DNA from: Squalus acanthias
Lineage: Eukaryota
Direction of reading: 5' to 3'
Length of the DNA: 64,000 nt
Assembly (NCBI GenBank): GCA_030390025.1
Contig: CM059439.1
Location: 62,496,001-62,560,000 of the forward strand
In this document: one piece after another, positions 8,361 to 52,264 of the stretch
How the letters are laid out: each line of letters begins with the position of its first letter
Position numbering within the stretch: the first letter of the stretch is position 1
Made by a program: the position numbers and the translations under genes
Notes under the pieces: model-generated
Database searches by the model: none
What the model was told of the DNA's origin: nothing
What the model saw: only the letters and a program-made list of their open reading frames with translations

Positions 8361-8619
8361 AGATGCACAAGGGTATATCAAAAACTGTTAGTGGTAAGTT
8401 TGTTATTCTGATGACACACAAATGTTTTTCTTTGCACCACTTTTGGGTCTTGTCCATTTTTGCCTCAAACCTGGGAAGTGGCTTTGTCACTTGGAGTGAA
8501 TGGTGAGATATTATTTAACCTCGAGCATTGGGTGAGAGGAATGGATTAGTCGTTGTCGGGATGTTTTATGGTGTTGGGTGGTGGGGAGGGGGAAACTTAG
8601 TACAGCATGTGGCTGCATT

Positions 8620-9811
8620 GAAGCAAGTTAAGTAAATCTGGCCATAATGAGGCCATACTGGGCCTCCCAGGCAGCAATGTGCGCCGCTGCTGATGCCATG
8701 TCCACCTCGGGTTCCTCCTCCTCGTCTTCCACCTGCTCTTCCTTTGAAGAGTCTGTGTGCTCTGCGCCATGCTCCTCCTGCAGCTCCAATCTCGCTGCTG
8801 CGCTATGTTGTGCAGCACGCAGCAGATGACGATGATTCTGGTGACCCTGGCTGGTGCGTACTGAAGGGCTCCTCCAGATCTGTCAAGGCATCTGAAGCAC
8901 ATAATCAGTATGCTTATTGCTTGCTTTATGACACATCTAGTGGAGATGTGGCTCTCATTATAACGCTTCTCGGCCTCAGTACTTAACGTCCTCAGGGGTG
9001 CCACGTCTTCAGTGGATAGCCCTCGTCTCAAGCAGCCAGCCGGTAAGTCTGTTTGGAGGAGCGAAGAGCTGAGGGAAGGTGGACTGGCGCAGCACAAAAA
9101 AGAGTCATGACAGCTGCCAGGGAATCTGGCGCACACATGCATGATCTTTTGATGGTTGCAGACGAACTGCACATTGAGGGAGTGGAAGCCATTGTGGTTC
9201 ATAAATATTCCTGGGTGATGATGGGCTGCCTTCATGGCCACATGTGTGCAGTCGATGACACCCTGCACCTGTGGGAAGTCAGCCAGAGTTGCAAAGTCGT
9301 GCGCCCTGCTCAGAAACACTGGCTTCATCAATGGCAAAGTTTACATAATTGGCTGACTTGTGAAACATGGCATCGGTCATCTGGGTGATGCATCTGTGGG
9401 TGGCCTGAACTGCGAGATCCCACAAATGTCTACTGAAGACCCCTGGAAGGAGCCTGAGGCGAAGAGGTTGAGGGCAGTGGTGACTTTGACAGCCACTGGT
9501 AAGGCGTGTCCACCAGGACCTCTGAACAGCAGGTCTTGTTCCAGCAAGCTACAAATGTCTGCGAGGACCTGGTGCAATAGCCTGAGCCTCCTGAAGCACT
9601 GCTGCTCAGTCATGTTGAGGAAGCTCTGCCAGTATACCGTGTTGGGGGTATCGCCTCCCGCGCGGTGCAGCCCTGTGGTGCCCCCCTCTCTCCTGTGGCG
9701 CATCAGGTCGTTAAGGCTGTTGTTGTGGTTGCTGCTGTTGCTGTCGTTAGTGGTGGGGCTTACCTTGGTACGATTCTGAGGCGAAGGTGAGACAGTATAA
9801 GCATCACCCAT
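8620..9811 (-). pseudogene. Harbinger DDE transposase pseudogene, copy 2
   Basis: [80 protein letters not shown]; several frameshifts. Confidence 0.9.
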
Positions 9812-10539
9812 GCTGATGTAGTAGATGGCAGGTAAAGGACCAGAGGACCAATCCCTCAATGTTGTGATAGTTAGTAGAATGTGGTGGGAGTGACTTCGAG
9901 GTTTCAAAAAAATGACCTGCAAACTGCTGACACCTAAATCTGTGGACAAAATGGAGTGAGCAAGAGCCTTTCCATGTGGCAATTAATGAGATGTAATGTT
10001 GCATTATTTATGTGCTTTTCCCAGCTATCAATGAATGAACTCGTCAATGGCCACTGAGCTTCTGCCTCCCCTTCACACGTGGGGTACCCAAGCTCCATGA
10101 ATCCCATGCTCCTGCAGTAAAACTCAAAAGCGGTCGCTAAAATCACTCAAGGGTCTCTGAACAAGCAGTTAATGATTTCAATGAGGTCGCCCACCTCTGC
10201 CGATCGGGTCCGTGTCACGCCTTCAAAGCCGCCCGAGTTAAATGCGCAAGGGAGCGGGATGACGGCGGGTTCCTGACGCGCTCGATATTTCCAGGATTTT
10301 TACTGCTAACCCACCCCCAAACCCGCACGCTCGGCAACAGGAAAATTCCGGTCGTAATTTTCCATCAAGTTTTTCAATCCAAATTCATCAATTGTATTAT
10401 TTATCTGATACGTGTATATTGAGGATTGTTAAAAATGAGGGGTTTGGATTTGAACATCTCATTTAAAAAATCCTTGTTTTAAATTTATCTCTCAGCATGT
10501 AAATTAACTAAATGGTAAAAGGTTAAAACTAAAAAGTTA

Positions 10540-11715
10540 CACGTTTCAATGAGATCACCTCTCATTCTTCTAAACTCCAGAGCGTATAGGCCCCATCTAC
10601 TCAATCTCTCATCATAGGACAACCCTCTCATTCCAGGAATCAATCTAGTGAACCTTTGTTGCACCACCTCCAAGGCAAGTATATCCTTCCTTAGATAAGG
10701 AGACCAAAACTGTGCACAATACTCCAAGTGTGGTCTCAACAAGGCCCTGTACAATTGTAGCAAGACTTTCTTACTCTTGTACTCCAACCCTTTAGCAATA
10801 AAGGCCAACATACCATTTGCCTTCCTAATTGCTTGCTGTACCTGCATGCTAACTGTGTTTCTTGTACTAGGACACCCAAATCTCTCTGAACACCAACATT
10901 TAATAGTTTCTCACCATTTAAAAAATATTCTGTTTTTCTATTCTTCCTACCAAAGTGAATAACCTCATTTCCCTACATTGTACTCCATCTACCACCTTAT
11001 TGCCCACTCACTTAACCTGTCTATATCCCTTTGCAGGCTCTTTGTGTCCTCCTCACAGCTTACTTTCCCCACTTAGCTTTGTATCATCTGCAAACTTGGA
11101 TACATTACACTTGGTCCCTTCATCTAGGTCATTAATATAGATTGTAAATAGCTGAGACCCAAGCACCGATCCTTGCGGCACCCCACTAGTTACAGCCTGC
11201 CAACCTGAAAATGACCCGTTTATCCCTACTCCGTTTTCTGTCCGTTAACCAATCCTCTATCCATGCTAATGTATTATCCCCAACTCCATGAGCCCTTATC
11301 TTGCGTAGCAAACTTATGTGGCACCTTATCGAATGCTTTTTTTGAAATCCAAATATACTACATCCACTGGTTTCCCTTTATCTACCCTGCTAGTTATGTC
11401 CTCAAAAAACTCTAATAAATTTGTTAAACACGATTATCCTTTCATGAAACCATGTTGACTCTGCCTAATCATATTACTGTATGATTTTCTAAGTGCCCTG
11501 TTACCACTTCCTTAATAATGGATTCCAGCATTTTCACGACGACTGATGTCAGGCGAACTGGCCTGTAGTTCCTGGTTTTCTCTCGTCTTCCTTTCTTAAA
11601 TAGCGGGGTTACATTTGCGACTTTCCAATCTGCTGGGGCCATTCTAGAATCTAGGGAATTTTGGAAGATCACAAATGCATCCACTATCTCTGCAGCCACC
11701 TCTTAGAACCCTAGG
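10540..11715 (-). mobile_element. CR1 LINE RT fragment
   Basis: WKVANVTPLFKKG..NYRPV.LTS; ANGMLAFI..RPHLEYC. Confidence 0.9.
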
Positions 11716-12684
11716 AGATGTTTCACTACATTAAAAGGTGCTATATAAATACAAGTTGTTGTTATCTCTGCAACTAACCCAGAGAGGCAGGCAGATTACT
11801 GACTGTCCCTTTTGTACACACAGCATATTGTTACTTTTCAGAAGTCCATTTTCCACCACTGAGGAGATTATCTCAATAACAGCAGAGGGGAATGTTTAAT
11901 GGGTAATAGACCATAAAATTATAGATCAACAGGTCCTTGCACGCACATTGTCCATGGTTAAAGTGAAAAAGAATGACACCATTTTTCAGCAAAATCCATG
12001 GGCCCAGAAATTTGGGCGCACCCATCTTCGGGCCCGTGGGGGGCAGAGTGCATTTCCTGCACCAGAATGGGGAGGCCCAGGGCTCCCCAGATAATTGGGC
12101 CTCATTAGAATGGAGTCAGCATGGCGCAATAACCAGCTAGTTGCATCGCAGCAGCCCTCAGGTAAGTGGGTTGGGGGGCCGGGTAATGCAGAGCTGGAGA
12201 TTGGCGCGGTGGGGGGGAGCTGCACGGGGGAAATGAGGGACCATGGATCAGGAGTCAGGGGTCGGGTTGGAAGCAGGGGAGAGTTTGGGGGTCAGGCCAG
12301 GAGCAGCAGCAATGGCGGGGGGGCAGGACGGGAGATCGGGGGTTCAGAGCGGAAGAGATGGGAGAAGAGCAGCGGCGATCAGTTGCATTAATGTGGGGTC
12401 AGGAGGAGCACTCTTGCTCTTCCCAGCTCCCAATGTAGGCAAGTTTCCTACCTTCTTTGTTGCAGGCGATTCCTAGGACTGGATTGCCCGAGTGCAGCCC
12501 TCGTTAATGCTGGCTGCCTCAGGGCGAGCCAATCTTGGAGAAGAGATCTCAAACAGGCATTAGGACCCTGATCTGCATATGCAAAGGGCATTACGCCTGT
12601 TTCAGGGTTGGGTAAAGGATGCCTCTTGTTTGTCCATACCCAATATGGCGGGCGGCGCACTTCCGGCTGGAAATGTGCGCCGAC

Positions 12685-12968
12685 TCTTTCGAAGAGCAAT
12701 CCAGTTACTCCCACTCCCCGCTCTTTCCCCATATCCCTGCAAATTTTTCTCCAAGTATTTATCCAATTCCCTTTTGAAGGCTTCTAGAGTCTGCCTCCAC
12801 CACCCTTCAGGCAGTGCATTCCAAATCCTAACCACTCGCTGCATAAAAAAGATTTTCCTCATGTCGCCTCTGGTTCCTTTGCCAATCACCTTAAATCTGT
12901 GCCCTCTGGTTATCGACCCTTCAACCATTGGAAAGAGTTTCTCTTTATTTACTCTATCAAAACTCTTC
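12685..12968 (-). mobile_element. CR1 3' fragment
   Basis: TRGHRFKV..FFMQRVVRIWNALP. Confidence 0.8.
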
Positions 12969-13078
12969 ATATGCTGTTTTATTTTTAGATATTTTAAAAA
13001 GGATTATCCTCCCAAACAAGAGTTCAAAGTGTTACTGTTCTTTCATCGCTTAATACAACTTTACTTGCATTTCCAAAA

Positions 13079-13590
13079 GCAAAATACTGCAGATGCTGGA
13101 AATCTGAAATAAAAAACAGAATATGCTGGAAATACTCAGCAGGTCAGGCAGCATCTGTAGAGAGAGAAACAAAGTTAACGTTTCAGGTCGATGACAGAAC
13201 TGGAAAAAGTTAGAGATGTAACAGATTTTAAGCAAGTGCAGGGGCAGGGAAGGGGGGGGGGGAGGAAAGAACAAAAGGGAAGGTCTGTGATAGGATGGAA
13301 GGCAGGAGAGATTAAAAGACAAAAGGAATGATGGTGCGAGCAAAAGGAGATGGTAATGGGACAAGTAAAGAAACAAAAGATGAGTCTTGAAGAGGTGTAA
13401 ATGGGAATGGCAGATTCATCAACAGCTGCCATGTGAAAAAAAAAAGGGCAGAGGATATGGTCTGAAATTGTTGAACTCGATGTTGAGTCTAGAAGGTTGT
13501 AAAGTGCCTAATCGAAAGATGAGGTGCTGTTCCTTGAGCTTCATTGGAACAATGCAAGAGGCCGAGGTCAGAGTGGGAGTGGAGCAGAGA
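13079..13590 (-). mobile_element. Penelope-like element 3' fragment / pLTR
   Basis: The - strand encodes a GIY-YIG C-terminal remnant (EQHLIFRLGTLQPSRLNIEFNNF). The terminal sequence is shared with 62011-62140. Confidence 0.6.
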
Positions 13591-13594
13591 GTTA

Positions 13595-16500
13595 AAGTTG
13601 TATCAAACCGCTACAAAAGAAGAATAAAACTGGACGAACCACGACCTAGGTGTCGGATTTGGACACGACAAAGGCACACCCAGGCAGTCGACCCTGCAAA
13701 GTCCTCCTCACTAACATCTGGGGACTTGTGCCAATATTGGGAGAGCTGTCCCACAGACTAGTCAAGCAACAATCTGACATAGTCGTACTCACAGAATCAT
13801 ACCTACCAGCTAAAGTCCCAGACTCCTCCATCACCATTCCTGGGTGTATCCTGTCCCACCAGCAGGACTGACCCACCAGAGGTGGTGCCGCAGTGGTATA
13901 CAGTCAAGAGGGAGTGGCCCTGGGAGTCCTCAACATAGGCTCCTGACCTCCTGAAGTCTCGTGGCATCAGGTCAAACATGGGCAAGGAAACCTCCTGCTG
14001 ATTACCACTTACCGCCCTCCCTCAGCTGATGAATCAGTACTCCACCATGTTGAACACCACTTGGAAGGTGCAGAATGTATTCTGTGTGGGGAACTTCAAC
14101 GTCCATCACCAAGAGTGGCTCAGTAAGAACATAAGAATTAGGAACAGGAGACGACCATACGGCCCTTTGAGCCTGCTCCGCCATTCAATAAGATCATGGC
14201 GGATTGGTAGCATCACCACTGACTGAGCTGGCCGAGTATTAAAGGACATAACTCCCATACTGGGCTTGCAGCAGATGGAGAGAACCAACACGAGGGAAAA
14301 ACCTACTTTACCTCTTCCTCACCAATCTACCGGTCACAGAACCATTTGTCCATGACAGTACTGGTAGGAGTTACCGCCACACTGAGGATACCCTCCATTG
14401 TATTGTGTGGCACTACCATCGCGCTAAATGGGATAGATTAAGAACAGATCTAGTAGCTCAAAACTGAGCCATAAGCAGCAGCAGAATTGTATTCCACCAC
14501 AATCTGTAACCTCAAGGCCCAGCATATCCCTCACTCTACCATTACCATCAAGCCAGGAAACCAACCCTGGTTCAATGAGTGTAGAAGAGCATGCCAGGAG
14601 CAGCACCAGGTGTACCTGAAAATAAGGTGCCAACCTGGTGAAACTACAACACAGAACTACATGTATGCTAAACAGCAGAAGCAGCATGCTATAGACAGAA
14701 CTAAGCAATTCCACAATCAATGGATCAGATCAAAGCTCTGCAATCCTGCCACATCCAGTTGTGAATGGTGGTGGTCAATTAAACAACTAACAGAAGGAGG
14801 AGGCTCCATGAACATCCCCATCCTCAATGATGATGGGGCCCATTATGTGAATGCAAAAGACAAGGCTGAAGTGTTCGCAACTATCTTCAGTCAGAAGTGC
14901 CGAGTGGAGGATCCATCTCGGCATCCTCCTGAGGTCTACGCCATCACAGATGCCAGTCTTCAGCCAATTCAATTCACTCCATGTAACATCAAGCAACGGC
15001 TGAGCATACGGGATACAGCAAAGGCTACGGGCCCGACAACATCCTGGCTGTAATGCTGAAGACTTGTGCTCCAAAACTAGCCACACCTCTAGCCAAACTG
15101 CTCCAGTACAGCGACAAAACTGGCATCTACCCGACAAAGTGGAAAATTGCCCAGGTATGTCCTGTCCACAAAAAGCAGGGCAGATCCAATCCAGGCAATT
15201 TCCACCCCACCAGCCTACTCTCAACCTTCAGCAAAGTGATAGAAGGTGTCATCGACAGTGCTATCAAGTGGCACTTACTCACCAATAACTTGCTCACCGG
15301 TGCTCAGTTTGGGTTCTGCCAGGACCATTCAGCTCCAGATCTCATTATAGCCTTGGTGCAAACATGAACAAAAGAGCTGAATTCCAGAGGTGAGGTGAGT
15401 GACTGCCCTTGGCATCAAGGCAACATTTGACCAAGTGTAGCACTAAGGAACCCTAGTAAAACTAAAATCAATGAGGATCAGGGGGAAAACTCCCTGGCTA
15501 GAGTCATACAGAGCACAAAAGGAAGGTGGTTGTGGTTATTGGAGGCAAATCATCTCAACCCTGGGATATTGCTACAGGAGTTCCTTAGAGCAGTGTCCTC
15601 GACCCAACCATCTTCAGCTGCTTCATCTACGACCTTCCTTCTATCATAAGGTCAGAAGGTGGGGGGGGGGTGATGTTCACTGATGATTGCACAGTGTTCA
15701 GTTCCGTTACCAATTTTTCAGATAATGAAGCAGTCTGTGCCAGCATGCAGCAAGACCTGAATAATATCCAGGCTTGGGCTGATAAGTGGCAAGTAACATT
15801 TGTGCCACACAAGTGCCAGGCAATGAGTATCTCCAGCAAGAGAGTCTAGCCACCTCCCATTGACATTCAACGGCATTATCATTCTTGAATCCCCCACCAT
15901 CACTATCCAGGGGTCACCTTTGACCAGAAACTTAACTGGACCAGCCACAAATACTGTGGCTACAAGAGCAGGTCAGAGGCTGGGTATTCTGCAGCGAGTG
16001 ACTCACCTCGGCTTCCAAAGCCTTTCCACCATCTACAAGGCACAAGTCAGGAGTGTGAAGGAATACTCTCCACTTGCCTGGATGAGTGCAGCTCCAACAA
16101 CACTCAAGAAGCTCGACACCATCCAGGACAAAGCAGCCCGCTTGATTGGCACCCCATCCACCACCTTAAACATTCACTCCCTCCACACCATGGCTGCAGT
16201 GTGTACCATCTACAAGATGCACTGCAGCAACTCACCAATGTTTCTTCAACAGCACCTCCTAAACCCACAACCTCTACCACCTAGAACAAGGGCAGCAAGC
16301 GCATGGGAACACCATCACCTGCAAGTTCCCCTCCAAGTCACACACCATCCTGACTTGGAAATATATAGTCGTTCCTTCATCGTCGCTGGGTCAAAATCCT
16401 GGAACTTCCTACCTAACAGCACTGTGGAAATATCTTCACCACATGGACTGCAACGGTTCAAGAAGGCAGCTCACCACCACCTTCTCAAGGGCAAGTGCTA

Positions 16501-17575
16501 AATGGGATAGATTCAGAACAGATCTAGTAGCTCAAAGCTGGGCATCCATGAGGCGCTGTGGGCCATCAGCAGCAGCAGAATTGTATTCCAACACAATCTG
16601 TAACCTCATGGCCTGGCATATCCCTCACTCTACCATTACCATCAAGCTAGGGGGATCAACCCTGGTTCAATAAGGAGTGTAGAAGAGCATGCCAGGAGCA
16701 GCACCAGGCATACATAAAAATGAGGTGCCAACCTGGGGAAGCTGCAACACAGGACTACATGCATGCTAAAAGGCAGAAGCAGCATGCTATAAACAGGGCT
16801 AAGCGATCCCACAATCAACAGATCAGATCAAAGCTCTGCAGTCCTGCCACATCCAGTCGTGAATGGTGGTGGACCATTAAACAACTAACAGGAGGCTCCA
16901 TGAATATCCCCATCCTTAATGATGGTGGAGCCCAGCACATGAGTGCAAAAGACAAGGCTGAAGCGTTTGCAACCATCTTCAGCCAGAAGTGCTGAGTGGA
17001 TGATCCATATCGGTCTCCTCCTGAGGTCCCCACCATCACAGAAGCCAGTCTTCAGCCAATTCGATTCACTCCATGTGACATCAAGAAACGGCTGAGCGCA
17101 CAGGATACAGCAAAGGCTATGGGCCCTGACAACATCCCGACTATCGTGCTGAAGACTTGTGCTCCAGAACTAGCTGCGCCTCTAGCCAAGCTGTTCCAGT
17201 ACAGCTACAACACTGGCATTTATCCGACAATGTGGTAAACTGCCCAGATATGTCCTGTCCACAATAGGAAGAACAAATCCAATCTGGCCAACTACCGCCC
17301 CATCAGTCTACTCTCAATCATCAGCAAAGTGATGGAAGGTGTCATCGACAGTGCTATCAAGCGGCACTTACTCACCAATAACCTGCTCACTGATGCCCAG
17401 TTTGGGTTCTGCCAAGACCACTCAGCTACCGACCTCATTACAGCCTTGGTCCAAACATGGACAAAGGAGCTGAATTCCAGAGGAGAAGCGAGTGACTGCC
17501 CTTGACATCAAGGCAGCATTTGACTGAGTGTGGCATGAAGGAGCCCTAGTAAAACTGAAATCAATGGGAATCGGA
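13595..17575 (+). mobile_element. Non-LTR LINE (APE+RT, CR1/L2/Jockey group, distinct from the vertebrate CR1 family here) followed by a tandem partial second copy from ~16495
   Basis: APE LLTNIWGL..DIVVLTESYL; RT TCAPELAAPLAKLFQ..NYRPISLLS..QFGF..ALDIKAAFD; many stops and frameshifts. Confidence 0.85.
14125..14200 (-). mobile_element. Short CR1 3' tail inserted in the LINE
   Basis: aagaacataagaattagg..gagcctgctccgccattcaataagatcatggc, matching the CR1 tails at 27115 and 56682. Confidence 0.7.
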
Positions 17576-17854
17576 GGAGCGAGATTGTGCGCTAGGGAAG
17601 GGAATCTCACAATTTGAGGGCTCAAAGATTTAAAATGGAGATTCATTTGTCTGCTGACTGTGTCTTGAGGTGAAGAGATTAGTTATTTTGCCCACATAAC
17701 AGCAGTTGCTGCACTGCATAAAGAAATAGATTGTTTCAACGGGAGATGCTACTATACAAAAATGAAACGGTTTTTATTTAAGGTTTCAATTAATTATCAT
17801 TAGCAAACTAAACATAACTTTGAATTATTTCCTTAAATAGAAAAATAGCCCATA

Positions 17855-18112
17855 AGTCATAGAGTCAGAGTAATAATGGCACAGAAGGAGGCAATTCGGC
17901 CCATCGAGTCAGTGCCGGCTCTCTGTAAAGCAATCCAGTCAGTCCCATTCCCCCGCTCTATCCCCGTAGCCCTGCAAGTTTATTTCCCTCACGTGCCTAT
18001 CCAGTCTCCCCTTGAAAACATTGAGTGTCTCCACTTCCACCACTTCCATCGGCAGCGGGTTCCAGGTCATCACCACTCGCTGCGTAAAAAAGTTTTTCCT
18101 CACATCCCCCCT
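17855..18112 (-). mobile_element. CR1 3' tail fragment
   Basis: catagagtc...ccactcgctgcgtaaaaaagttttt, the reverse of a CR1 end. Confidence 0.7.
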
Positions 18113-19907
18113 GTAGATTGCGACATCTTGAAGGAAAAAGAATCCATAGTCACAACAGCAGTGTTTGTATTTACGCTGGGAAGGAATCTAGAGTAAATTC
18201 ACCAAGAAAACATCAAAACTGCCAGTATTCTGTTAAGGCTACTAAGATAGCAGCAACCTGGACTGTAGCTTGGGGCACCTTGCAGATTAAAGCATGCTGG
18301 GAGCTGCAAGGGCAGATTTCCCTGACCCCTGTCTCTCCACACTCGGTCCCATCCCTGCACAGGAGCGCTCTACCTAAAATTTATATGGGCCGGGGGGCAC
18401 CCTGGCACAGGCCCGTTACCTGGCAAGGTCAGAGTTGCCAACTCTGGTTGGGCGTATTCCTGGAGGTTTGATCACATGACATTTGCTGCAGTTTGCAAAT
18501 GTTACTGCATTTACCTTATAAAGGTCGTATCCCCTGCCATCTTCACAGATTTACCCTCCTCCCTTCTTCCACAAATTTACTCTCCATTCAATTTATCAAA
18601 TCCATAATGTTGATAGCAAGCCCAAGCATGGCCATTAAATCATGATCACTCTGTTCTAAAATTATAACAATTTCAGTAACGCACTCATTGTATTTCAACT
18701 GTAACCAAAAGTGCAATTAAAAAACAAACTTGACAAAACCTAAATCACAAGATGTCAGGAACCATGATTTAATGTGACCATGAAAGAAGACTTAATCCTT
18801 CTACATTGCTGGCATTTTTTTTAAATTACAAAGAGCACCACTATATTTGAAATATCTGCAGACTATATTGTGAGTTACAGAAGGTACAGCATCAGCAAAT
18901 GTGCAGTACTAACAAAATGTGAACACAAATCAGGAGGATTTCTTTGGCTTCTGTCACCTCAGAGGGTACAATTTACTGAGGCCTACCACTAGCTGAAGGG
19001 GCATGAAATATAAATTTAGCTACAGGCCTTTCAGCCATGTGTTAGGCCTCCGAGATCAGGGCCTACTGGCTTCTGATGGAGATCAAAAAAAACCTCGATT
19101 GCATCCAAAAGTGCTAGGGGAGGGGAGGAGAAAGTATAAGCCACCACTCACCTGGCTCACTTCAGCCTTCCCCCGGACCCCCGCAGACCCTCTGTTGTGC
19201 GGATTTCCAAGGACAGGGCAATATGCCACATTTCACTGGGTGCCCATGAGTTGGGGGTCCCAGCCATCAATGTCCCACTAAAATGAGGTAGGTGGCTGCC
19301 AACGCCTTCTCCTGCCTCACTTTACAGCCGCCTATGCCCAGCTCCATGCCCCATCCCCTAGAGAAGCACTAGTGAGCCCAGGACAATGCAAAAAGGAGTG
19401 GAGACCTGGCAAAATAGATCTCTGTCCCTTTTCACGATCTGTATGCCCAGGGAATTGGGTGTTCCGCAGGGTAAAAGGTCAGGAAAATCCACCCTGTAGT
19501 CTCCAGCAGCGAGTATTTCTACAAAACTAATACTGTCGCTTGCCTTTGTAACAAGTAAAAGTATGGGGGCGGAAAGAGTTGCGATTTATTTCCTACATTG
19601 CATAGTACTCTAAATATGCTCATTCCAAAATAAACTTTCGGCAATAACGAAGATAAATTGTAGGGCTGAGTTTCCCATTATTGGGCCTAGATGTATTGGA
19701 TCACCTACATTGAGGAAAACTGGGTGGGGAGGATTGCAGGCCTGTAAGAGAACCTGCTTGATTTTTTGCCCATTCATTTAAATGGACCGAAATTGGGTGG
19801 GCTCCGTGTTATCGAAATGCGACCCTTCCTGCTCAGTTTTCCTCCATGTGTTGCGCCAATTCTGCACCTAAATATTTTCAACATTCAAATTCTGCTAAAG
19901 TTAATAA

Positions 19908-19990
19908 TGGGGTTTGGGAGTCAGTGGGTTCGTGTACTGCCTTTCACCTCTAGGACCTGGATTTAAATCCAGTCCAGACTGATGGATGGG
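19908..19990 (+). mobile_element. LF-SINE-like tRNA-derived head fragment
   Basis: gcctttcacctctagg..tggatttaaatccagtccag resembles the LF-SINE 5' region as recalled. Confidence 0.35.
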
Positions 19991-21059
19991 ATGGAAACTA
20001 CCTCTCAGCTACCCCAAGCGCTCAGAGGATTTATCCAGTGAGTAACTGAGTCATACAGACTGCGAAGGTTCCAGGTTGGATCCTATCTCCAACCAGCCAT
20101 TCTAAAACATAAAGCAGAATAATTAGGGTGACGGAGACACTTTAAGTGTACAGGTATTTGCAATCCTGTATATAATACACTCCAGCATGTGTGCGATCCT
20201 GTATGGAACATGCTCCAGTCTGTATACTATGCTGTAATAGACACCAGCTTGTGTGCACACAGGAGTGTGCTACATACAGGATTGCACAGAGGCTGAAGGG
20301 TGGCTAGCAGAGTGAGTTGATCTCCACACTGAACCTTCTCTCTCCAGCACCCAGGGCCACATTAGCACAGGGGCCTACGGGTAGCACAGGGGCCTACGGG
20401 GCCTATGCCAACAGGTCGCGGTTAAATATGGGGTCCCCACTTAAGGCCCCGTGATCACAGCTCACCATCAGTAAACCAGCAATTCCGGCCGGTTGCATGA
20501 ATTGCAAGGCACGGCAGGCAATGACTGGGGCAGAGTTTAGTTTGCAGACTGTGGCGTTGACTGCGCCGTGCGGCCCGCTTGTGGTTCCACATGGCAGGAA
20601 GACGTGGTGGAAGACTTTGAGTAGCCTCTACAGCGTCTCGCAGGGTTGGATATTTAACCTTTTAGGCATTTTTCCACATCTGTGTTTTAATGGATCTCTG
20701 CAGATCTCAGGTGTAAACTCAGACTGCTGCAGTTTGGGCCCCATAGGGCAAAGTTTAGCTGGACCAACAAGAAAAATATATTAAATTGCCAAGAACGAAT
20801 TACCAGGCACTCCTCTCTCATGGAATAAAGTGACAAATAATTTTTAAAATCAAAAGGAAATTAACCAAATTCTTTGATGTACTGTCTGGTGATGTCCCAA
20901 CATCACCACTGAAGGATTCAGCACAGCGGAGGTCAGGTCTCAGAGGTGTCCATGTGAACCACTGAACAAGCTCCAGTGATGGAGGGTGAAAGCTCCCTAA
21001 ATCCAAAGTTAAGGATCTGCCCAGCTCCAAGAGAGCCTCACTCCATTTCAATCTGGAAC

Positions 21060-23070
21060 CAGGTCGGGCTCGGACTTTAGATCTAGACTGCCTTTACATT
21101 AATACATGTTTTAGGCTATTCGTTTATCCTTCAATATCAAAGACAGCCAGACCATCATCTCATGTTTTGCAGTGAGTGCTTTGGTGACTGCCGAGACCTA
21201 GTTTTGCTCGAAACGAGTGTCGGCAGATTGAACAGTAGATCCTGGATACGCCAGGTTGGGAATCTTGATTTTTCAGACAAGAGGAGACTTCCTCAGCTGG
21301 CCTTTACATTCAGCATCAGCAACGCGATGGGGCCTCATTGTAGGAGCTGCCTTCATGGTTGGTTTTTCCCTATGCTTCCTTAACTTGAGCAAGTTGTTCC
21401 CATTTATGGACATCTATTTGGCACTGTTTCCAGAGTCACTTTTAGGATGTCTTTACATCACTTTTGCTGTCCACCACAACAAAATAATCGCTTCCCAGTT
21501 GTCAATGAGCATCTTCAGGATTCATTCCTCAGACATTCGCACCACATGGCCTGACCACCAGAGCCGCACGCTCATGATCAGGGCATCGATGCTTGGCATG
21601 TCACCTTGAAGAACTTCAGTGTTGAAGAGATCGGAAAGTCTCGGTTTGAAGAATGGACTCAGTCGAGAATATTTTGTGGACTTTATGGGATTTTTCTGAG
21701 GGTATTTTCCCTGTGATGGGATCGCCCTGTGCAGATACGTGAAAAACTGGTTTGTTAAAACTCAGAGAACGCACGGCAGTTGGCTGTGACAAAAGAACTG
21801 TCAGTCATCCAGAATGTATGGGTTCGCCCGACAGTCCTGGAAAAAGGAAGGGGGGGGGCCATTGACGAAGGGGCTGAGGACCTGAGGCACCCGTTAACTT
21901 GAACCTATTAGAAAGCCACTCTAATATGCAAAAGCACTTCTCACCTCCATCTCAGAAGAGAAGCAGAACAATGAACCCACTAGCCTAGCCAGCCGAAGAG
22001 GAGCCAGTTTTTCCCAACACAAAGACCGAGATATGTCCCAGACTTCGGGCCATTAGTCCAATCACGGAATACTCATGGGTCTGATGATGGCCCATCACTG
22101 GCTAAGCACTGGAGTGCTTAGAAACAAAAGGATTTTAAAGATTGGCGGGAAAGATAGGGGTAGCAAGACTCCTATAAAGATAGATCCTTTTCCACCATTC
22201 GCTCTCTCGCTCCACCAAGATCGCCCTAACAAGAAGTAGTACCAGAGGAAGAAGCCACTGAGACCGAGAACCACATACCCCTCACAGGGAACGGCCTCCA
22301 GGCAGTGACTTCCCACAGCTGAGCGAAGCGATCGAGACCGACTGTGTGTGGTGGGAAGCATGGTCTCGAGTGTCCCAAGCCGGTAACCAGATACTGTATG
22401 TATGTTGTTTGTAACCTGGATCTTATTCTCCACAGAGACAGTGATTTTGTTTAGTAGTGCATGTTTTAGCCAATGTATGTTAGACCAAATAAATATAAGT
22501 ATGATTTTTCACTGAAGCATTCCTGTCCGTGACTTATTCCATTTACACTCTGAATAATAATTCCCGGGTATAGAACTTTCGTAACTGGGGGAGATTCGAA
22601 CCGTCCGTCTAGCGATTGGGCTAGGACCAAACCCGCTTAGTGTTAGGGATCTTGTCTTGCCATCTGACGTTCAATAGGCATCCCAGGCAGCTTAGGTGAA
22701 AGTGATTCAGTTTCTTAATTTGATGTGAATATGTTGTCCAAGTTACAACAGCAACCCTGCAGACTGAGAGTTTGGTCTGCAGGCTGATGCCTCTCTTGTA
22801 CGAGGTGCTCACGGAGTTTGCCAAAAGCTAAGCTGCCTTTGGTGATTCTGCAGAATGCTTCGGTCTGGATATGGACCTCTCTAGACAGGGTGCTATCCGG
22901 ATAGGTGAATCTGTCCACAGCTTGGAGCGCGCAATCATCTATAGGGACGGTTGGTGGAGATTAATCCTTGCCTGGGGCTGGTTGGAAGAGTACCACCATC
23001 TTTTAAAGGCTGATAGTTGTGCTAAATTGCAGGCAAACTATCGCAAGGTGGTTCATGTCAGGTTGTAAAT
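21060..23070 (-). mobile_element. RTE (BovB-like) LINE remnant split by a solo LTR
   Basis: GISLQTKLSV..TWTTYSHQIKKLNHFHLSCL..LNVRWQDKIPNT, continuing as ..EVL..MPSIDALI..LWWSGHVVRM on the other side of the 21623-22639 insert. Confidence 0.75.
21623..22639 (+). mobile_element. Solo LTR (ERV- or Gypsy-like), 1017 bp
   Basis: Interrupts the RTE precisely with 4-bp TSD GTGT (21619-21622 and 22640-22643). Termini TGAAG...GCTTA (imperfect TG..CA); CCAAT 22058, ATTGG 22141, TATAAA 22173, AATAAA 22488. Confidence 0.72.
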
Positions 23071-23379
23071 GCAGCTGAAAACATGTTTAAATATTTGTCA
23101 TTCCTTATTCTCCCATTTAGACAGCTCTCTGAAATACTCTAACTGTGAAATCCCAGTCTTTTATTCAATTAGCTGGGGCTAGAGGGATCTCATGCGCGTT
23201 AAGGGCTGTACTTTGGTTCCTGTGAGTTTAAGGACTTGGGTGGAATATATCAATTTTGGGACGATCTGGGGAAAGTTATAAATAATATAAAATGTATACA
23301 ATTTGTAACTTTTTTCCTGCCGGCAGGTGCAGCTCTGGGTTTCTGTCTCTTGGCGCCTGTCTCCAACTCAAACCCTTCT

Positions 23380-23870
23380 GTGAAAAGGAGAAGGATGCCC
23401 GGGGGCTCGAAAGCGGAGAGAGGTGCTGGGGCGGGGGTCAAGTCTCCCCGAACCCCCAAGTGCTCTCGCTGCAGGAACCATGGCTTCGATGTCCGGCTAA
23501 AGGGGCACGGGGCGTGCAGCTGGCGGCGCTGCCAGTGCCCCAAGTGCTACTTGATCGCCGAGCGCCAGCGCATCATGGCAGCGCAGAAAGCGCTCCGCAA
23601 ACAGCAGCAGCGGGAGGAGGAGCTGGGGCTGGCCGGCCCCTCGCTCGGGGCAGACGGCAGCAATACCAGCGTCAGCCCGCCTCCTGTCCCGGAGCAGCCT
23701 CCAGCCCCGGCTCCGGCTCCAGCTCCAGCCGCGGCCACCGCCCCCCAGCCCGAGGGAGACGCCTCTGTCTCGGACAGGCGCGGTCCCTCACTGGGCGTGG
23801 AGTCTAGACAGGGCGGCGGGGAGAGGAAGGAGAGTCCCTACACGGTCCATACCTCCGCCCCCTTCGGTAA
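23380..23870. promoter_or_regulatory. CpG island over dmrtb1 exon 1
   Basis: Visibly GC- and CpG-rich compared with the AT-rich flanks. Confidence 0.7.
23395..23866 (+). CDS. dmrtb1: DMRTB1/Dmrt6 coding exon 1 (DM zinc-binding DNA-binding domain plus Pro/Ala-rich linker)
   Basis: ATG at 23395. [36 protein letters not shown] matches the DMRTB1-type DM domain (CYLI.ERQ.IMAAQK). Donor G|gtaaga at 23866/23867, phase 1. The exon is CpG-rich. Confidence 0.93.
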
Positions 23871-24874
23871 GAAAAACCAATACAAATTATAAATCAGTTA
23901 AGATAATTTTTCAACATTTATTTAGACTGCAACTAATAACACAAGTGTTGAGAAGGAATAGTTATTTTATTTGTTTATACCCGAAGTGAACTATTTTAAC
24001 TTTTAAAGTTAATCCTATTATTGAAGCCATCAAAATCGAATTAGACGAACAAATTGTTACAAAGTACATGCAGAAGTGGGTCATATAGTGACCCAAAAAG
24101 GCCCTAGGGATTTTCATGTTTAAATTTTAATAGACTGGTTGGACTTTGAGTGAACACGTTTTTAAATCCCTTTCTTTGAAGTCTGGTACAGCACTTCAAT
24201 TATCCGTCCCTGCTTACTGGAGAGGCTTCGAACCTCCTATACATGAAGGACTCATTGAGGTTTTGCCTTTGAAACACCAGCTGATATAAAGTAAAAGCGT
24301 TTCATTCTCCACATTTCCCGGAGTGTGTTACAGAGCTGGATTTTCATTTCCGAGCAGTAAGAGTTATTTGTAATTGTTGCTAATTACAGCCAGTTCTCCT
24401 TCGTTATTTCGTCTCCCAGTGAGTGATCCTGCAGTAAATGTTCTCGGTACTGAATCTGTTTAATTCCAACTCCTGGCTGCGAGTTTCAGGTGGTTAGTTT
24501 CAACTCTGGGTCTGTTGCCTCTGCACAGTTTGTTCCAGACCGGGTGGTGTTCCCGCTATCTTGTAACAACATTTTTATCGATTTTAATCTGCAAAAAAAA
24601 AACTGTCGCACTTAGAGAGAAGGCTGGAGTTCTGGGGAAAAAAAGGTTGTGAACAAACAAGAAATTGCAATATTTGTGTCCTTTCTCCAAAGTAATATAA
24701 CGGTCAAAAAAGATGATCAACATTGAATACGTATTGGTGTCAGGCAGCACTATATTCTCAAAGTCGCAAATATTAGGGCGCATTGTATATTTATTGAAGG
24801 TTTTGCCTAACACTGGGACATAATGACAACCTTCCCCCCCCCCCCCCCCACACACCCTACCCCACCCCACCCCA

Positions 24875-26357: not shown

Positions 26358-26632
26358 ATCATGCTGCTTTATACCAGGAAGTTGCCACCACCAATAAAGA
26401 GCAAGCGGAGAGAAATTCCGTGAGCGGTGGTTTTTACCGGAACATCTTGCCGCCGAAGCTGTATACAGGATATTGCAGCAGTGTGTACAGTTATCACCCC
26501 TTCTCTATGGGCTTTCCAATGAATCAGCCAGGCTACAAGGGAGCTCCTATGCCAGCCGGAATATGCGCCTCAAGAGGCAGCTTCAGACCAGTACAAGGAA
26601 GCCTTGGAGCATTCCATCCAAACCCCATGTTG
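26358..26632 (+). CDS. dmrtb1: DMRTB1 coding exon 2
   Basis: Acceptor ttttttccacctttag|AT and donor TTG|gtaaga; phase 1 in, phase 0 out; frame open. YSYHPFSMGF...GSFRPV resembles the HPYCPFPLGY...GFRHV segment I recall from mammalian DMRTB1. Confidence 0.85.
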
Positions 26633-27307
26633 GTAAGACACTAAAGGAATAAAAATGGTTCATTCATGATGCTTCTGTCAGTCAAATGACAGAAATTTAA
26701 ATCATATTCTAAATATGGAAAATGTGGGTGGAACATTTCAATTTTAGGATTTAATATTGTGCATTTCTTTTTAATAATTTCCTGATGGTATGAAATCCAG
26801 CTGTACTTTTCTTCTCCACGCACTGGTCCCCCTACACCATAGAACGATACAGCACAGAAGGAGGTAATTCAGCCCATCGTGCCGATGTTGGCTCTTTGGA
26901 AAAAGCTATCCAATGAGTCCCATTCCCCTGCCTATTCCCCCCAACCATGCAAAATTTCCCCCTTCAAGTATTTATCCAATTCCCTTTTGAAAGTTGTTAT
27001 TGAATCGGCTATCACCACCCTTTCAGGCAGTGCATTCCAAATCATAACTCGCTGCGCAAAAAAAAAAACTCATCTCGCCTCTGGTTCTTTTGCCAGTTGC
27101 CTTAAATCTGTGTCATAAGAACATAAGAAATAGGAGCAGGAGTAGGCCAATTGGCCCTTCGAGCCTGCTCCGCCATTCAATAAGATCATGGCTGATCTGA
27201 TCCTCACCTCAAATCTAAAGAACACAAGAAGTAGGAGCAGGACTCGGCCACTCAGCCCCTGGGCCCGCTATGCCACCCACAGGGCCTCGACCGATCCGAA
27301 CTCAGCC

Positions 27308-30110
27308 TCATGTCCAATTTCCTGCCCGCTCCCCGTAACCCCTAATTCCCTTTACTTCTAGGAAACTGTCTATTTCTGTTTTAAATTTATTTAATGATGT
27401 AGCTTCCACAGCTTCCTGGGGCAGCAAATTCCACAGACCTACTACCCTCTGAGTGAAGAAGTTTCTCCTCATCTCAGTTTTGAAAGAGCAGCCCCTTATT
27501 CTAAGATTATGCCCCCTAGTTCTAGTTTCACCCATCCTTGGGAACATCCTTACCGCATCCACCCGATCAAGCCCCTTCACAATCTTATATGTTTCAATAA
27601 GATCGCCTCTCATTCTTCTGAACTCCAATGAGTAGAGTCCCAATCTACTCAACCTCTCCTCGTATGTCCACCCCCTCATCCCGGGGATTAACCGAGTGAA
27701 CCTTCTTTGTACTGCCTCGAGAGCAAGTATGTCTTTTCTTAAGTATGGACACCAAAACTGTATGCAGTATTCCAGATGCGGTCTCACCAATACCTTATAT
27801 AACTGCAGCAATACCTCCCTGTTTTTATAATCTATCCCCCTAGCAATAAAAGCCAACATTCCGTTGGCCTTCTTGATCACCTGCTGCACCTGCATACTAA
27901 CTTTGATTTTCTTGCACTAGGACCCCCAGATCCCTTTGTACTGCAGTACTTTCCAGTTTCTCGCCATTAAGATAGTAACTTGCTCTCTGATTTTTCCTGC
28001 CAAAGTGCATAACCTCACATTTTCCAATATTGTATTGCATCTGCCAAATCTCTGCCCACTCACCCAGCTTGTCTATATCCCCTTGTAGGTTTTTGATGTC
28101 CTCCTCACTTTCTACTTTCCCTCCCATCTTTGTATCATCTGCAAACTTTGATATGTTACACTCGGTCCCCTCCTCCAAATCGTTAATATAGATTGTAAAG
28201 AGTTGGAGACCCAGCACCGACCCCTGCGGAACACCACTGGCTACCAGTCCGAGAATGAACCATTTATCCCAACTCTCTGCTTCCTGTTAGATAACCAATC
28301 CTCCACCCATGCCAGAATATTCCCCCCAATCCAGTGATTTTTTATCTTGAGCAATAATCTTATGTGGCACCTTGTCGAATGCCTTCTGGAAGTCTAAATA
28401 CACTACGTCCATTGGTTCCCCTTTATCCACCCTGTACGTTATGTCCTCAAAGAACTCAAGCAAATTTGTCAGACATGATTTCCCCTTCATAAAGCCATGC
28501 TGACTTTGTCCTATCAAATTAGGTTTATCTAAATGTTCCGTTACTGTCTCCTTAATAATAGACTCCAAAATTTTACCCACCACAGATGTTAGACTAACTG
28601 GTCTATAATTTCCAGCCTTCTGCCTACTACCCTTTTTAAATAAGGGTGTTACATTAGCAGTTTTCCAATCTGCCGGGACCTTTGCTGAGTCCAGGGAATT
28701 TTGGAAAATTATTACCAAAGCATCCACAATCCCCATTGCCACTTCCCTCAAGACCCTAGGATGTAAGCCATCAGGTCCAGGGGAATTATCCACCTTGAGT
28801 CCCATTATTTTACTGAGTACCAATTCCTTAGTGATTTTAATCGTATTTAGCTCCTCCCCCCCTAGAGCCCCCTGTTTGTCCAGTGTTGGGATATTCTTAG
28901 TGTCCTCTACCGTAAAGACTGAAACAAAATATTTGTTCAGCATTTTTGCCATCTCCATGTTTCCCACCATTAATTTCCCGGTCTCATCCTCTAAGGGACC
29001 TACGTTTGCCTTAGCCACCCTTTTTCTTTTTATATAACTATAGAAACTCTTGCTATCTGTTTTTATATTTTTTGCTAATTTATTTTCATAATCTATCTTC
29101 CCTTTCTTAATCAATCCTTTAGTTACTTTTTGCTGTCTTTTGAAGCCTTCCCAATCTTCTATCCTCCCACTAAGTTTGGCTACCTTATATGTCCTTGTTT
29201 TTAGTTGGATACTATCCTTGATTTCTTTACTTAGCCACGGATGGCTGTCATTTCTTTTACACCCTTTTTTCCTCAGTGGAATATATATTTTTTGAAAGTT
29301 GTAAAATAACTCCTTAAATGAACACCACTGCTCATGTACCGTCTTACCCTTTAATCTATTTTCCCAGTCCACTTTAATCAATTCCGCTCTCATACCATCA
29401 CAGTCTCCTTTATTCAAGCTCAGTACGCTTGTCTGAGAACCAACCTTCTCACCCTCTAATTGGATATGGAATTCAACCATGTTATGGTCACTCATTCCAA
29501 GGGGATCCTTAACTAGGACATTATTAATTAATCCTGACTCATTACACAGGACCAGGTCCAAGGTTGCTTGCCCCCTTGTAGGATCAGTTACATACTGCTC
29601 AAGAAATCCATCCCTAATACACTCAATAAACTCTTCAAGGCTGCCCTGCCCAATTTGATTTGTCCAGTTAATATGATAGTTAAAATCCCCCATAATTATA
29701 GCTGTTCCCTTATTACATGCCCCAACTATTTCCTGATTAATACTTCTTCCAGCAGAGTTGCAACTATTAGGAGGCCTATATACTACTCCCACTAGTGTTT
29801 TTTTCCCTTTATTATTCCTTATCTCCACCCAAACTGTTTCATTATCCTGATCCTTTGACCCAATATCATTTCTCTGTAATAGTGATTCCTTCCTTTATTA
29901 ACATAGCTACCCCACCTCCTCTTCCTTCCTGTCTGTCCTTCCTGATTGTTAAATACCCTGGCATATTTAATTCCCAGTCGTTGTCACCCTGCAGCCATGT
30001 TTCTGTAATGGCCACAAGATCATACCCATACGTAGTTATTTGTACCGTCAATTCGTCTATTTTGTTACGAATGCTGCGTGCATTCAGATAAAGAACTTTT
30101 AAATATGTTT
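27308..30110 (-). pseudogene. CR1 ORF2 (APE endonuclease + reverse transcriptase), frameshifted
   Basis: AITETWL, GVVYRPP, MGDFN, SDHN, NYRPVSLTS, YLDFQKAFDKVPH, FADD, spread over four ORF segments. Confidence 0.9.
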
Positions 30111-30273
30111 TGTGACAATTTATTCCTGCTTTTACCCCCTTTACCTTTATCTTTATATATTCTGTCCCTTCCTGACACGCTCTGGTTTTTAATTACCCCA
30201 CTGCTACTTTGCTCTATTGCCTTCTCCGCTGACATTTTTATTTTTTGCTCTCTTGAAACCTCCCCCCCACTAA

Positions 30274-31230
30274 TTAGTTTAAAGCCCTTTCTACAGCCCT
30301 AGTTATTCGATTCGCCAGGACTCTAGACCCAGCACTGGCCAAGTGAAGTCCGTCCCAACGGAACAGCTCTCTCTGGCACCAGTACTGGTGCCAGTGTCCC
30401 AGGTAGCAAAACCCATTTCTCCCACACCAGTCTTTGAGCCACGCATTTAACCCTCTGATTTTATTTACCCTAGCCAAATTTGTTCGTGGCTCAGGTAGTA
30501 ATCCAGAGATTACTACCCTAGAGGTTGTGTTTTTTAATTTGGCCCCTAGCTGCTCATACTCCCTCAGCAGAACCTCATTCCTTGTCCTATCTATGTCATT
30601 GGTACCAACATGGACCACGACAACTGGATCTTCCCCCTCCCACTCCAAGTTTCTCTCCAGCCCAGAGGAGATGTCCTTAACCCTGGCACCGGGCAGGCAA
30701 CATAGCCTTCGGGACTCTCGCTCTCGGCTGCAAAGAACCCTATCTATCCCCTTAATGATACTATCCCCTACCACTACAACATTTCTTTTTACTCCCCCCA
30801 CTTGAATGGCTCCCCGTACCACAGTGCTGTGGCCAGGTTGCTCATCCTCCCTGCAGTCCCTGCTCCCGTCCTCACAGGGAGTAAGAGCCTCGAACCTGTT
30901 GGACAAGAGCAAGGGCTGCGGCTCCTCCAACACTACCTCCTGGATCCCCGTACCTGCCTCACTCGTAGTCACACCCTCCTGTCCCTGATCATGGGCTACA
31001 TCTGAATTAGTTAATCTAATTGGTGTGGCTACCTCCTGGAACACAGAGTCCAGGTAACTCTCCCCCTCCCTGATGTGTCGCAGTGTTTGAAGCTCGGACT
31101 CCAGCTCATCAACACGGAGCCGGAGTTCCTCGAGCAGCCAACACCTACTGCAAATGTGATCACCGTGAACATCAATGGTGTCCTCCAGCTCCCACATATT
31201 GCAGCAGTAACACATCACCTGCTCTCCCAT
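30274..31230 (-). CDS. CR1 ORF1p: zinc finger + leucine zipper + SGNH esterase (318 aa, open)
   Basis: CxxC..CxxC; LxxxVxxLxxxLxxL; SGNH blocks VGDS, PGA, VGTND, DGLH. Confidence 0.88.
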   Translation of the reverse strand: MGEQVMCYCCNMWELEDTIDVHGDHICSRCWLLEELRLRVDELESELQTLRHIREGESYLDSVFQEVATPIRLTNSDVAHDQGQEGVTTSEAGTGIQEVVLEEPQPLLLSNRFEALTPCEDGSRDCREDEQPGHSTVVRGAIQVGGVKRNVVVVGDSIIKGIDRVLCSRERESRRLCCLPGARVKDISSGLERNLEWEGEDPVVVVHVGTNDIDRTRNEVLLREYEQLGAKLKNTTSRVVISGLLPEPRTNLARVNKIRGLNAWLKDWCGRNGFCYLGHWHQYWCQRELFRWDGLHLASAGSRVLANRITRAVERALN

Positions 31231-31292
31231 TCTATGTAATTAATTAAATTTATTATTTACCCTTTAATTAATTTAAATTAAAACAATACACT

Positions 31293-31590
31293 TCTGTGAC
31301 AGTTTGTTCTGAGTCTCTTCACTCTCTGTCCTGTGGCAGTTTGTTCCGAGTCTCCTCACTCTGTCCTGTGGCAGTTTGTTCGGAGTCTCCTCACTCTCCG
31401 TCCTGTGGCAGTTTGTTCCGAGTCTCCTCACTCTCCGTCCTGTGGCAGTTTGTTCTGAGTCTCCTCACTCTCTGTCCTGTGGCAGTTTGTTCTGAGTCTC
31501 TTCACTCCGTCCTGTGGCAGTTTGTTCTGAGTCTCCTCACTCTCTGTCCTGTGGCAGTTTGTTCTGAGTCTCCTCACTCTCTGTCCTGTG
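31293..31590. repeat. Tandem repeat, 8 units of 35-37 bp (tcctgtggcagtttgttctgagtctcctcactctctg)
   Basis: Directly visible; lies inside the TSD-bounded CR1 at its 5' end. Confidence 0.92.
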
Positions 31591-34288: not shown

Positions 34289-35300
34289 GGAAAGTAGAAA
34301 GTGAGGAGGACATAAAAAACCTACAAGGGTATATAGACAAGCTGGGTGAGTGGGCAGAGATTTGGCAGATGCAATACAATATTGGAAAATGTGAGGTTAT
34401 GCACTTTGGCAGGAAAAATCAGAGAGCAAGTTATTATCTTAATGGCGAGAAACTGGAAAGTACTGCAGTACAAAGGGATCTGGGGGTCCTAGTGCAAGAA
34501 AATCAAAAAGTTAGTATACAGGTGCAGCAGGTGATCAAGAAGGCCAACGGAATGTTGGCTTTTATTGCTAGGGGGATAGATTATAAAAACAGGGAGGTAT
34601 TGCTGCAGTTATATAAGGTATTGGTGAGACCGCATCTGGAATACTGCATACAGTTTTGGTGTCCATACTTAAGAAAAGACATACTTGCTCTCGAGGCAGT
34701 ACAAAGGAGGTTCACTCGGTTAATCCCCGGGATGAGGGGGTGGACATACGAGGAGAGGTTGAGTAGATTGGGACTCTACTCATTGGAGTTCAGAAGAATG
34801 AGAGGCGATCTTATTGAAACATATAAGATTGTGAAGGGGCTTGATCGGGTGGATGTGGTAAAGATGTTCCCAAGGATGGGTGAAACTAGAACTAGGGGGC
34901 ATAATCTTAGAATAAGGGGCTGCTCTTTCAAAACTGAGATGAGGAGAAACTTCTTCACTCAGAGGGTAGTAGGTCTGTGGAATTTGCTGCCCCAGGAAGC
35001 TGTGGAAGCTACATCATTAAATAAATTTAAAACAGAAATAGATAGTTTCCTAGAAGTAAAGGGAATTAGGGGTTACGGGGAGCGGGCAGGAAATTGGACA
35101 TGAGGCCGAGTTCGGATCGGTCGAGGCCCTGTGGGTGGCATAGCGGGCCCAGGGGCTGAGTGGCCGGGTCCTGCTCCTACTTCTTGTGTTCTTTAGATTT
35201 GAGGTGAGGATCAGATCAGCCATGATCTTATTGAATGGCGGAGCAGGCTCGAAGGGCCGATTGGCCTACTCCTGCTCCTATTTCTTATGTTCTTATGTTC
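34289..35300 (+). mobile_element. 5'-truncated copy of the same young CR1
   Basis: Near-identical reverse complement of ~27115-28120; the RT C-terminal frame is open. Confidence 0.93.
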
Positions 35301-37522: not shown

Positions 37523-37670
37523 ATGCGGGATAATGGTTGCGGTCTACACTCATCTTATTACTCACCACCTCCGTTTCTTGGTTCAAGATTGTTCTCCGGG
37601 CCCCCTTACATCCCCCCACTCATGGCACCAAGGGCCAGTGAGACTGCTGGTGAAATAGAGGTAACTGCAG
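37523..37670 (+). CDS. dmrtb1: DMRTB1 coding exon 3
   Basis: Acceptor tttctttgcctttctgatag|ATG and donor GCAG|gtaaga; phase 0 in, phase 1 out. SSYYSPPPFLG..LFSGPPYIPP resembles DMRTB1 PSYYLPP..FLP..YLS.LHFLPP. Confidence 0.82.
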
Positions 37671-52190: not shown

Positions 52191-52264
52191 AGTCGGCCGC
52201 TGACAGCCAGGACTCGGGGCTGATCTGTCTTGGAAGTCAGAGTTCTTCCCAGGAGAGCAATTGA
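52191..52264 (+). CDS. dmrtb1: DMRTB1 terminal coding exon 4
   Basis: Strong acceptor ctttcattctgctgtgtttttattccag|. Phase-1 join gives ESAADSQDSGLICLGSQSSSQESN-stop (TGA 52262-52264), resembling the recalled human DMRTB1 end ..DDQDAEVLSGEPSQPSSQEQSD. Confidence 0.8.

Follow-up and report, generated by a model that had tools for sequence, protein, structure and literature searches.

In mouse oocytes, long terminal repeats (LTRs) of the MaLR/MTA and RLTR10 groups give rise to chimeric transcripts whose starts and junctions were mapped in RNA; MaLR LTRs provide both promoter and splice donor there, while RLTR10 solo LTRs seldom start spliced transcripts (available text of PMC13408016). In medaka, dmrt1bY is preceded by Izanagi, a P-like DNA transposon split by the LINE Rex1, which carries a Dmrt1 binding site at least 69 bp upstream of the start site and whose function was demonstrated (PMC2820524, in its accessible part). 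It was also reported that a donor in the R region of the foamy-virus LTR lies upstream of the poly(A) signal, which it can suppress (PMC3694450, accessible text), and that sharks contain foamy-like endogenous retroviruses (PMC5512871, accessible text). Dmrt6 is expressed in the testis of lungfish and coelacanth and acts in mouse at the spermatogonia-to-spermatocyte step (available part of PMC6007259). A literature search over the main texts of papers outside subscription returned nothing on the shark Dmrt6 promoter or on shark LTR promoters.

The locus considered here is a 64,000-nucleotide stretch of Squalus acanthias DNA (the window), in which a solo-LTR-like insert lies in the sense of Dmrt6 (dmrtb1), 755 bp ahead of its ATG, as the rechecked coordinates confirm. 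A sequence-only reading had proposed that this insert was exapted as a promoter or first exon of Dmrt6. Such exaptation is not favoured by the present analysis. It is rather probable, with a good share of doubt, that the LTR is a bystander copy lodged in a dead LINE, and that Dmrt6 keeps an older promoter of non-transposon origin. The features of the locus are collected in Table 1.

Table 1. Features of the Dmrt6 locus (window coordinates).
Feature	Position	Strand	Basis or detail
Decayed LINE, presumably RTE-type, 3' part	21150..21618 (left end approximate)	-	tblastn 21623-21504; CCHH-like motif
Left target-site duplication (TSD) copy, GTGT	21619..21622	+	4-6 bp possible
Solo-LTR-like insert	21623..22639	+	1017 bp, from a dispersed high-copy family
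U3-like core promoter	22058..22205	+	CCAAT 22058, inverted CCAAT (ATTGG) 22141, TATAAA 22173
R-like region	22348..22504	+	five weak donor-like sites, ATG 22360, AATAAA 22488
Right TSD copy	22640..22643	+	GTGT at 22640
Same decayed LINE, 5'-ward part, truncated	22644..23077	-	EN-RT protein similarity
Single-copy non-TE segment, candidate native promoter/first exon	23078..23221	+	donor-like 23221|23222
Candidate 105-nt 5' UTR intron	23222..23326	+	sequence only; ends at the acceptor of the sequence-only reading
Dmrt6 (dmrtb1) first coding exon, DM domain	23395..23866	+	PF00751, E 5.5e-20; CpG-rich stretch
Putative final exon, spliced antisense non-coding transcript, intron 1	23900..24588	-	two runs guessed to be RNA
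Dmrt6 coding exon 2	26358..26632	+	protein matches
Dmrt6 coding exon 3	37523..37670	+	protein matches
Dmrt6 last coding exon	52191..52264	+	protein matches

The gene is intact, and its four coding exons match shark and ray proteins, the nearest named one being that of Pristiophorus japonicus (87% over exon 1). It encodes a DM domain without a Dmrt1 or DMA domain, its exon 2 matches caecilian DMRTB1 and not fish DMRT1, and a tree of 20 rows joins the clade of sharks and rays to tetrapod DMRTB1, not to DMRT1 (SH-aLRT 93, not starred); the tree query had exon 4 off by one base, with its last 25 residues out of frame. On these sequence comparisons, Dmrt6 appears the best name for the gene, in agreement with the earlier identification. 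Most orthologues in sharks and rays go under dmrt1-like or a comparable name. In Leucoraja erinacea, a full-length orthologue of 316 aa with an intact DM domain is annotated, in contrast to the pseudogenisation of dmrt6 reported for the little skate (PMC6737965, available text). The Pristiophorus japonicus model (741 aa), in which Dmrt6 exons 1-3 run on into a second protein with DM and DMA domains, probably results from the fusion of a tandem Dmrt gene in annotation; within the 64-kb window no second DM exon was found, and no neighbouring gene was recognised among the long ORFs.

The Dmrt6 ATG (23395-23397) aligns with the starts of all five full-length shark and ray proteins of the alignment that carry it and with that of a coelacanth protein. 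Ray, bamboo-shark and coelacanth starts are among those aligned, and two Narcine models add five residues ahead. Since this start codon is shared with these proteins, the gene long predates the insert.

For the insert itself, the claimed length and both GTGT copies were confirmed, but the claimed 4-bp duplication is ambiguous, because the two junctions have the 6-bp word AGTGTT in common, and the duplication is 4 bp long only if the insert ends in TG...TA. Under that assumption the usual terminal CA is replaced by TA and the terminal inverted match is 5/12, both of which could be due to decay. A short duplication flanks a discrete insert across which the LINE protein is collinear, and promoter, TATA box and poly(A) signal follow one another on one strand in U3-R-U5 order. 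The insert is best read as a solo LTR, likely the remnant of a recombination. In a DNA run of organism A (X3; available, like the other runs, as contigs only), one contig (record 20, 21293-21673, depth 13.1) spans the left junction with 0 differences, so the insert is real in that organism. An Rfam search gave nothing near threshold, Pfam gave no match for the alternative ORF or for the ORF on the LTR minus strand, and scanning viral and metagenome contigs for exact patterns gave no hit and no parent element. A scan for motifs yielded nothing distinctive, and a DMRT motif was not found.

Dispersed LTR-like copies, whose absence would have refuted the sequence-only reading, were found as high summed depth in four bins of the insert, with the two edge bins scaling with the share of the bin that the insert occupies. 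The summed contig depth, which is not a copy number, is ~750-1100x that of single-copy bins in X3 and ~3800-5700x in a DNA run of a relative, B (X6). This copy differs by 3.2-3.8% from the displayed family contigs, and no exact family ends occur among the 24 loose-end rows listed out of 1829. Within the 64-kb window the insert has no second copy. Other repeats of the window include young CR1-like LINE pieces in intron 2 (27114-30192 and 34289-35297), whose inverted arms of 791 and 219 nt are 99% complementary and whose region includes a long EN-RT ORF; beside them lie an SGNH-like ORF (30274-31239) and a 37-bp tandem array (31294-31590). Two inverted copies of a GIY-YIG ORF (58126-60187), 97% complementary, are presumably Penelope-like, and two decayed transposase remnants (1175-1915 and 8597-9982) are taken by us to be Harbinger-like. 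A short, very abundant repeat (18434-18480), a small hairpin repeat (20177-20301) and a 163-nt inverted pair (38751-40213) were also observed.

The LINE around the insert is antisense to Dmrt6. Both flanks are collinear with one EN-RT protein (residues 841-902 with 22797-22636, and 900-932 with 21623-21528), which bears out the claim that the insert splits a LINE remnant. The 5'-ward part has 59-61% identity to EN-RT proteins with PF00078, and a C-terminal CCHH-like motif is found at 21163-21303. The alignment gives only an EN-RT protein, and the assignment to the RTE clade is our assumption; a Pfam search of the LINE pieces gave a sub-threshold match only.

In relative B, the insert flanks are covered by single-copy X6 contigs that are 4.4% diverged from the window and form a chain of records 28 (19389-21557), 29 (22640-22990) and 30 (from 22963). 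The alignment of record 29 begins at 22990 and stops exactly on the right TSD, at 22640, which leaves 89 letters unaligned; at the opposite end it shares 28 bases with record 30. This remainder matches the span of 89-91 bases between the expected start of the overlap with record 28 (21528-21530) and the left TSD. With the LTR in place, these letters should have matched its 3' end; on this ground the LTR appears to be absent from the site. The contig geometry thus appears to fit an empty site in a relative in which the LTR family is abundant, the joint itself being absent from the 15 joint rows listed out of 191. Another X6 joint, 21603-to-22645 (depth 17.6, 11 letters between), was rejected as an empty allele and possibly belongs to another LINE copy. 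Presence of the LTR at the orthologous locus, which the sequence-only reading had put up for checking, therefore appears not to hold in this one relative, on contig geometry; such a lack of conservation is compatible with recent exaptation. Since the LINE is common to the window and relative B, the order of events is gene, LINE and then LTR. Under the shark rate assumed in PMC4422223 (available text), itself the author's guess, the divergences would amount to tens of millions of years. With the site apparently empty in a relative and the start codon shared with rays, an older promoter must exist. Both points argue for the LTR as a bystander.

Against that reading stands the promoter layout, intact, in sense and less than 1 kb from the ATG. 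Both CCAAT boxes and the TATA box lie exactly where they had been placed, and from their spacing transcription is predicted to start at 22198-22205. In addition, AATAAA lies on the LTR plus strand, 106 bp past the proposed donor 22382, a signal absent from the earlier account; the LTR minus strand holds neither TATAAA nor AATAAA. In dinucleotide shuffles, TATAAA alone recurred in 328 of 2000, TATA plus two CCAAT in 16/2000, and the same with a downstream AATAAA, a pattern chosen post hoc, in 0/2000. CpG o/e is 0.62 in the LTR vs 0.39-0.41 in the LINE flanks, and this too weighs against a bystander.

Donor scores were obtained with a frequency table. The donor at 22382|22383 and the acceptor AG ending at 23326 were verified in position, and the donor-like sites of the LTR (22350, 22382, 22399, 22474 and 22498) score 0.13-2.49. 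The proposed donor 22382 reaches 0.71 vs 3.42, 3.77 and 7.41 for the three donors of Dmrt6; it ranks 14th among 134 GT sites in 20900-23330 and 4th among 31 in the LTR past the TATA box, and sites as strong occur 4.2 times per kb. The acceptor, with the same pyrimidine content as that of exon 2 (12/16), is good and suggests an upstream non-coding exon, but it does not imply one as had been stated, given that 202 of the 2170 YAG sites in the window are equally pyrimidine-rich.

The ATG at 22360 has the strong context ascribed to it (A at -3, G at +4), and a splice from 22382 to 23327 does yield an out-of-frame ORF, of 167 codons, ending at 23807. Its stop lies 59 nt ahead of the exon 1 donor, a distance that is borderline for nonsense-mediated decay. 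Four of the five LTR donors tried carry an out-of-frame AUG overlapping the Dmrt6 ORF, which, with the low score of 22382, argues for a bystander. The caveat of the sequence-only reading about this AUG is true for donor 22382 and hinges on the donor: 22350 escapes it with an AUG-free leader of 219 nt, and with 22474 or 22498 the leader gains a weak in-frame AUG as well, points that count the other way. The unspliced path from the LTR holds 17 AUGs.

The earlier statement that nearly all upstream DNA is TE-derived was overstated, since the LINE match ends at ~23077 and ~320 bp of single-copy DNA follow before the ATG. The donor at 23221 in this DNA scores 2.08 (sites this strong occur 2.1 times per kb), and a splice from there to 23327 would leave a single uORF of 28 codons whose stop precedes the main ATG; a non-TE donor that could serve the same acceptor with only a short uORF favours a bystander LTR, although the exon 23078-23221 is a candidate predicted from sequence and the empty site is read from geometry. 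Within 23078-23326 the reading frame is open for 64 codons before the ATG, and what we take to be an NRF1-like half motif lies at 23191. TATAAA at 23277 and 23286 was rejected as promoter evidence, as it lies in AT-rich DNA inside the candidate intron.

The strongest version of the sequence-only reading, in which the LTR took over from the ancestral promoter and serves today as the principal Dmrt6 first exon, is highly improbable. The position, orientation and intact core promoter of the insert agree with it, and so does an acceptor as pyrimidine-rich as that of exon 2; it has to contend with the apparent absence of the LTR from a relative 4.4% diverged, with a weak donor that brings in a strong-context out-of-frame AUG, and with a non-TE donor that is closer and better.

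A native first exon may also lie far upstream, with LINE and LTR both inside a 5' UTR intron and the sense LTR acting mainly as a partial terminator through its AATAAA; this is very unlikely, and it overlaps the reading of the LTR as a bystander in that the promoter is non-LTR in both. Of 466 GT sites in 11700-21620, 12161 has the highest donor score (8.93) and lies in a GC-rich stretch, and single-copy, CpG-richer DNA at 20400-20700 and the antisense orientation of the LINE likewise accord with such an exon, which is a prediction from the letters. Site 12161 may lie in a repeat, and a sense poly(A) signal in a first intron would probably be costly. The stretch 12000-12700 is GC-rich and holds the strongest donor-like site upstream of Dmrt6.

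Two further runs from different studies (X13 and X17) were guessed to be RNA; their contigs drop rare variants and cannot show starts. With X3 and X6 they make up the four runs analysed, out of 22 of which six were guessed to be RNA. No joint from the LTR to 23327 occurs among the 15 joints listed out of 191, in runs whose coverage leaves out 22819-23432 and whose depth over Dmrt6 is ~3-4. One X17 contig (record 16) begins at 26357 with 60 unplaced letters (60 x 3 / 307 = 0.59, the depth of the exon 1 end bin), which fits an exon 1-exon 2 splice and supports Dmrt6 expression. One X13 contig (record 6, 22509-22722, depth 3.5) runs unspliced from the LTR 3' end into the LINE flank, with locus-specific letters at 22669 and 22674 and 5 mismatches over its 214 letters. 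The LTR locus may therefore be transcribed, though read-through from the LTR, upstream pre-mRNA, antisense RNA, DNA or a chimeric contig could each account for this record. LTR family sequences occur in both putative RNA runs. Of 22 displayed positions in the LTR, 17 carry nothing but a different letter in X13, so the abundant X13 signal comes from other loci; X3, though it holds this copy, also hides its letter at 12/22 positions, so the X13 pattern cannot prove the copy silent.

Intron 1 shows a separate signal. Contigs of X13 (record 7, depth 9.7) and X17 (record 15, 5.4) end at 24590-24591 with 92 and 39 unplaced letters, unlike the DNA run X3, which continues past this point. There the minus strand carries a strong T-rich acceptor whose end is at 24589, together with AATAAA at 23966 and at 23917, and lacks an ORF. 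The segment 23900-24588 is likely the final exon of an antisense non-coding RNA that is spliced and stops shortly before Dmrt6 exon 1.

Record 6 of X13, which spans the 3' end of this copy into the flank, and the family signal in both runs speak against a mere bystander and for the LTR as a minor, lineage-specific alternative promoter or enhancer, which we consider possible but somewhat unlikely. Some germline transcripts would then start at ~22200 and be spliced to 23327 from a weak R donor, or else read through; which donor is used would decide between more DMRT6, an N-terminally extended form, and a native promoter damped via a poorly translated isoform. The intact sense promoter (0/2000 shuffles), the clean leader from donor 22350 and the ability of the foamy-virus donor to suppress the poly(A) signal downstream of it (PMC3694450, accessible text) fit this idea. 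All five donors are weak and the unspliced path carries 17 AUGs, and record 6, which departs from the window at 5 of 214 letters, may derive from DNA or antisense RNA or be chimeric.

If the LTR is a bystander, as seems rather probable, the element would have integrated after the split from relative B, or was sorted differently between the lineages, and its two LTRs would then have recombined to leave a solo LTR. The CCAAT, TATA, donor-like and AATAAA signals would be the element's own equipment. Dmrt6 would start in 23078-23221, with a short exon and the 105-nt intron to 23326, or in the region of the CpG-rich first coding exon, and transcripts initiated within the LTR would for the most part terminate at the LTR's AATAAA or continue unspliced at a low level.

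As it stands, the case is ordinary, as a repeat-rich genome puts some solo LTRs near genes; what it yields is a fixed set of four Dmrt6 coding exons and a named non-TE candidate first exon. The boldest conjecture, distinctly unlikely, is that a lineage-specific retroviral LTR works as a germline Dmrt6 promoter whose output, a leader free of AUGs, an N-terminally extended DMRT6 or a decoy isoform that cannot be translated, depends on the R donor chosen. If true, cartilaginous fishes would offer an LTR-derived promoter of a developmental gene, of which the literature search showed no published case, the apparently empty site in a relative would serve as a natural control, and transposon rewiring of Dmrt and germline genes would extend to sharks. 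Filled and empty sites in related species would make any LTR effect directly testable.

With regard to the known systems, the shark locus resembles the mouse oocyte cases in having, ahead of the acceptor of a germline gene, a sense solo LTR that carries a promoter and donor-like sites, but it offers sequence signals alone and weak donors where starts and junctions were mapped in mouse RNA; the MaLR LTRs count against a bystander here and the RLTR10 solo LTRs for one (PMC13408016, available text). Medaka dmrt1bY shares nested lineage-specific TEs just upstream of a Dmrt gene. As a precedent it stands for TE rewiring, but its DNA transposon gave binding sites, not a start site; a LINE splits the transposon there, whereas in the shark an LTR splits a LINE, and the shark gene is the non-duplicated Dmrt6, with a predicted role of the LTR only (PMC2820524, accessible part). 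In foamy virus, R measures 193 nt with the poly(A) signal at +168, as against a predicted R of ~310 nt and AATAAA at +289 in the shark LTR (PMC3694450, accessible text). The likeness to that LTR lies in donor-like sites, weak but present, in R upstream of the poly(A) signal at 22488.
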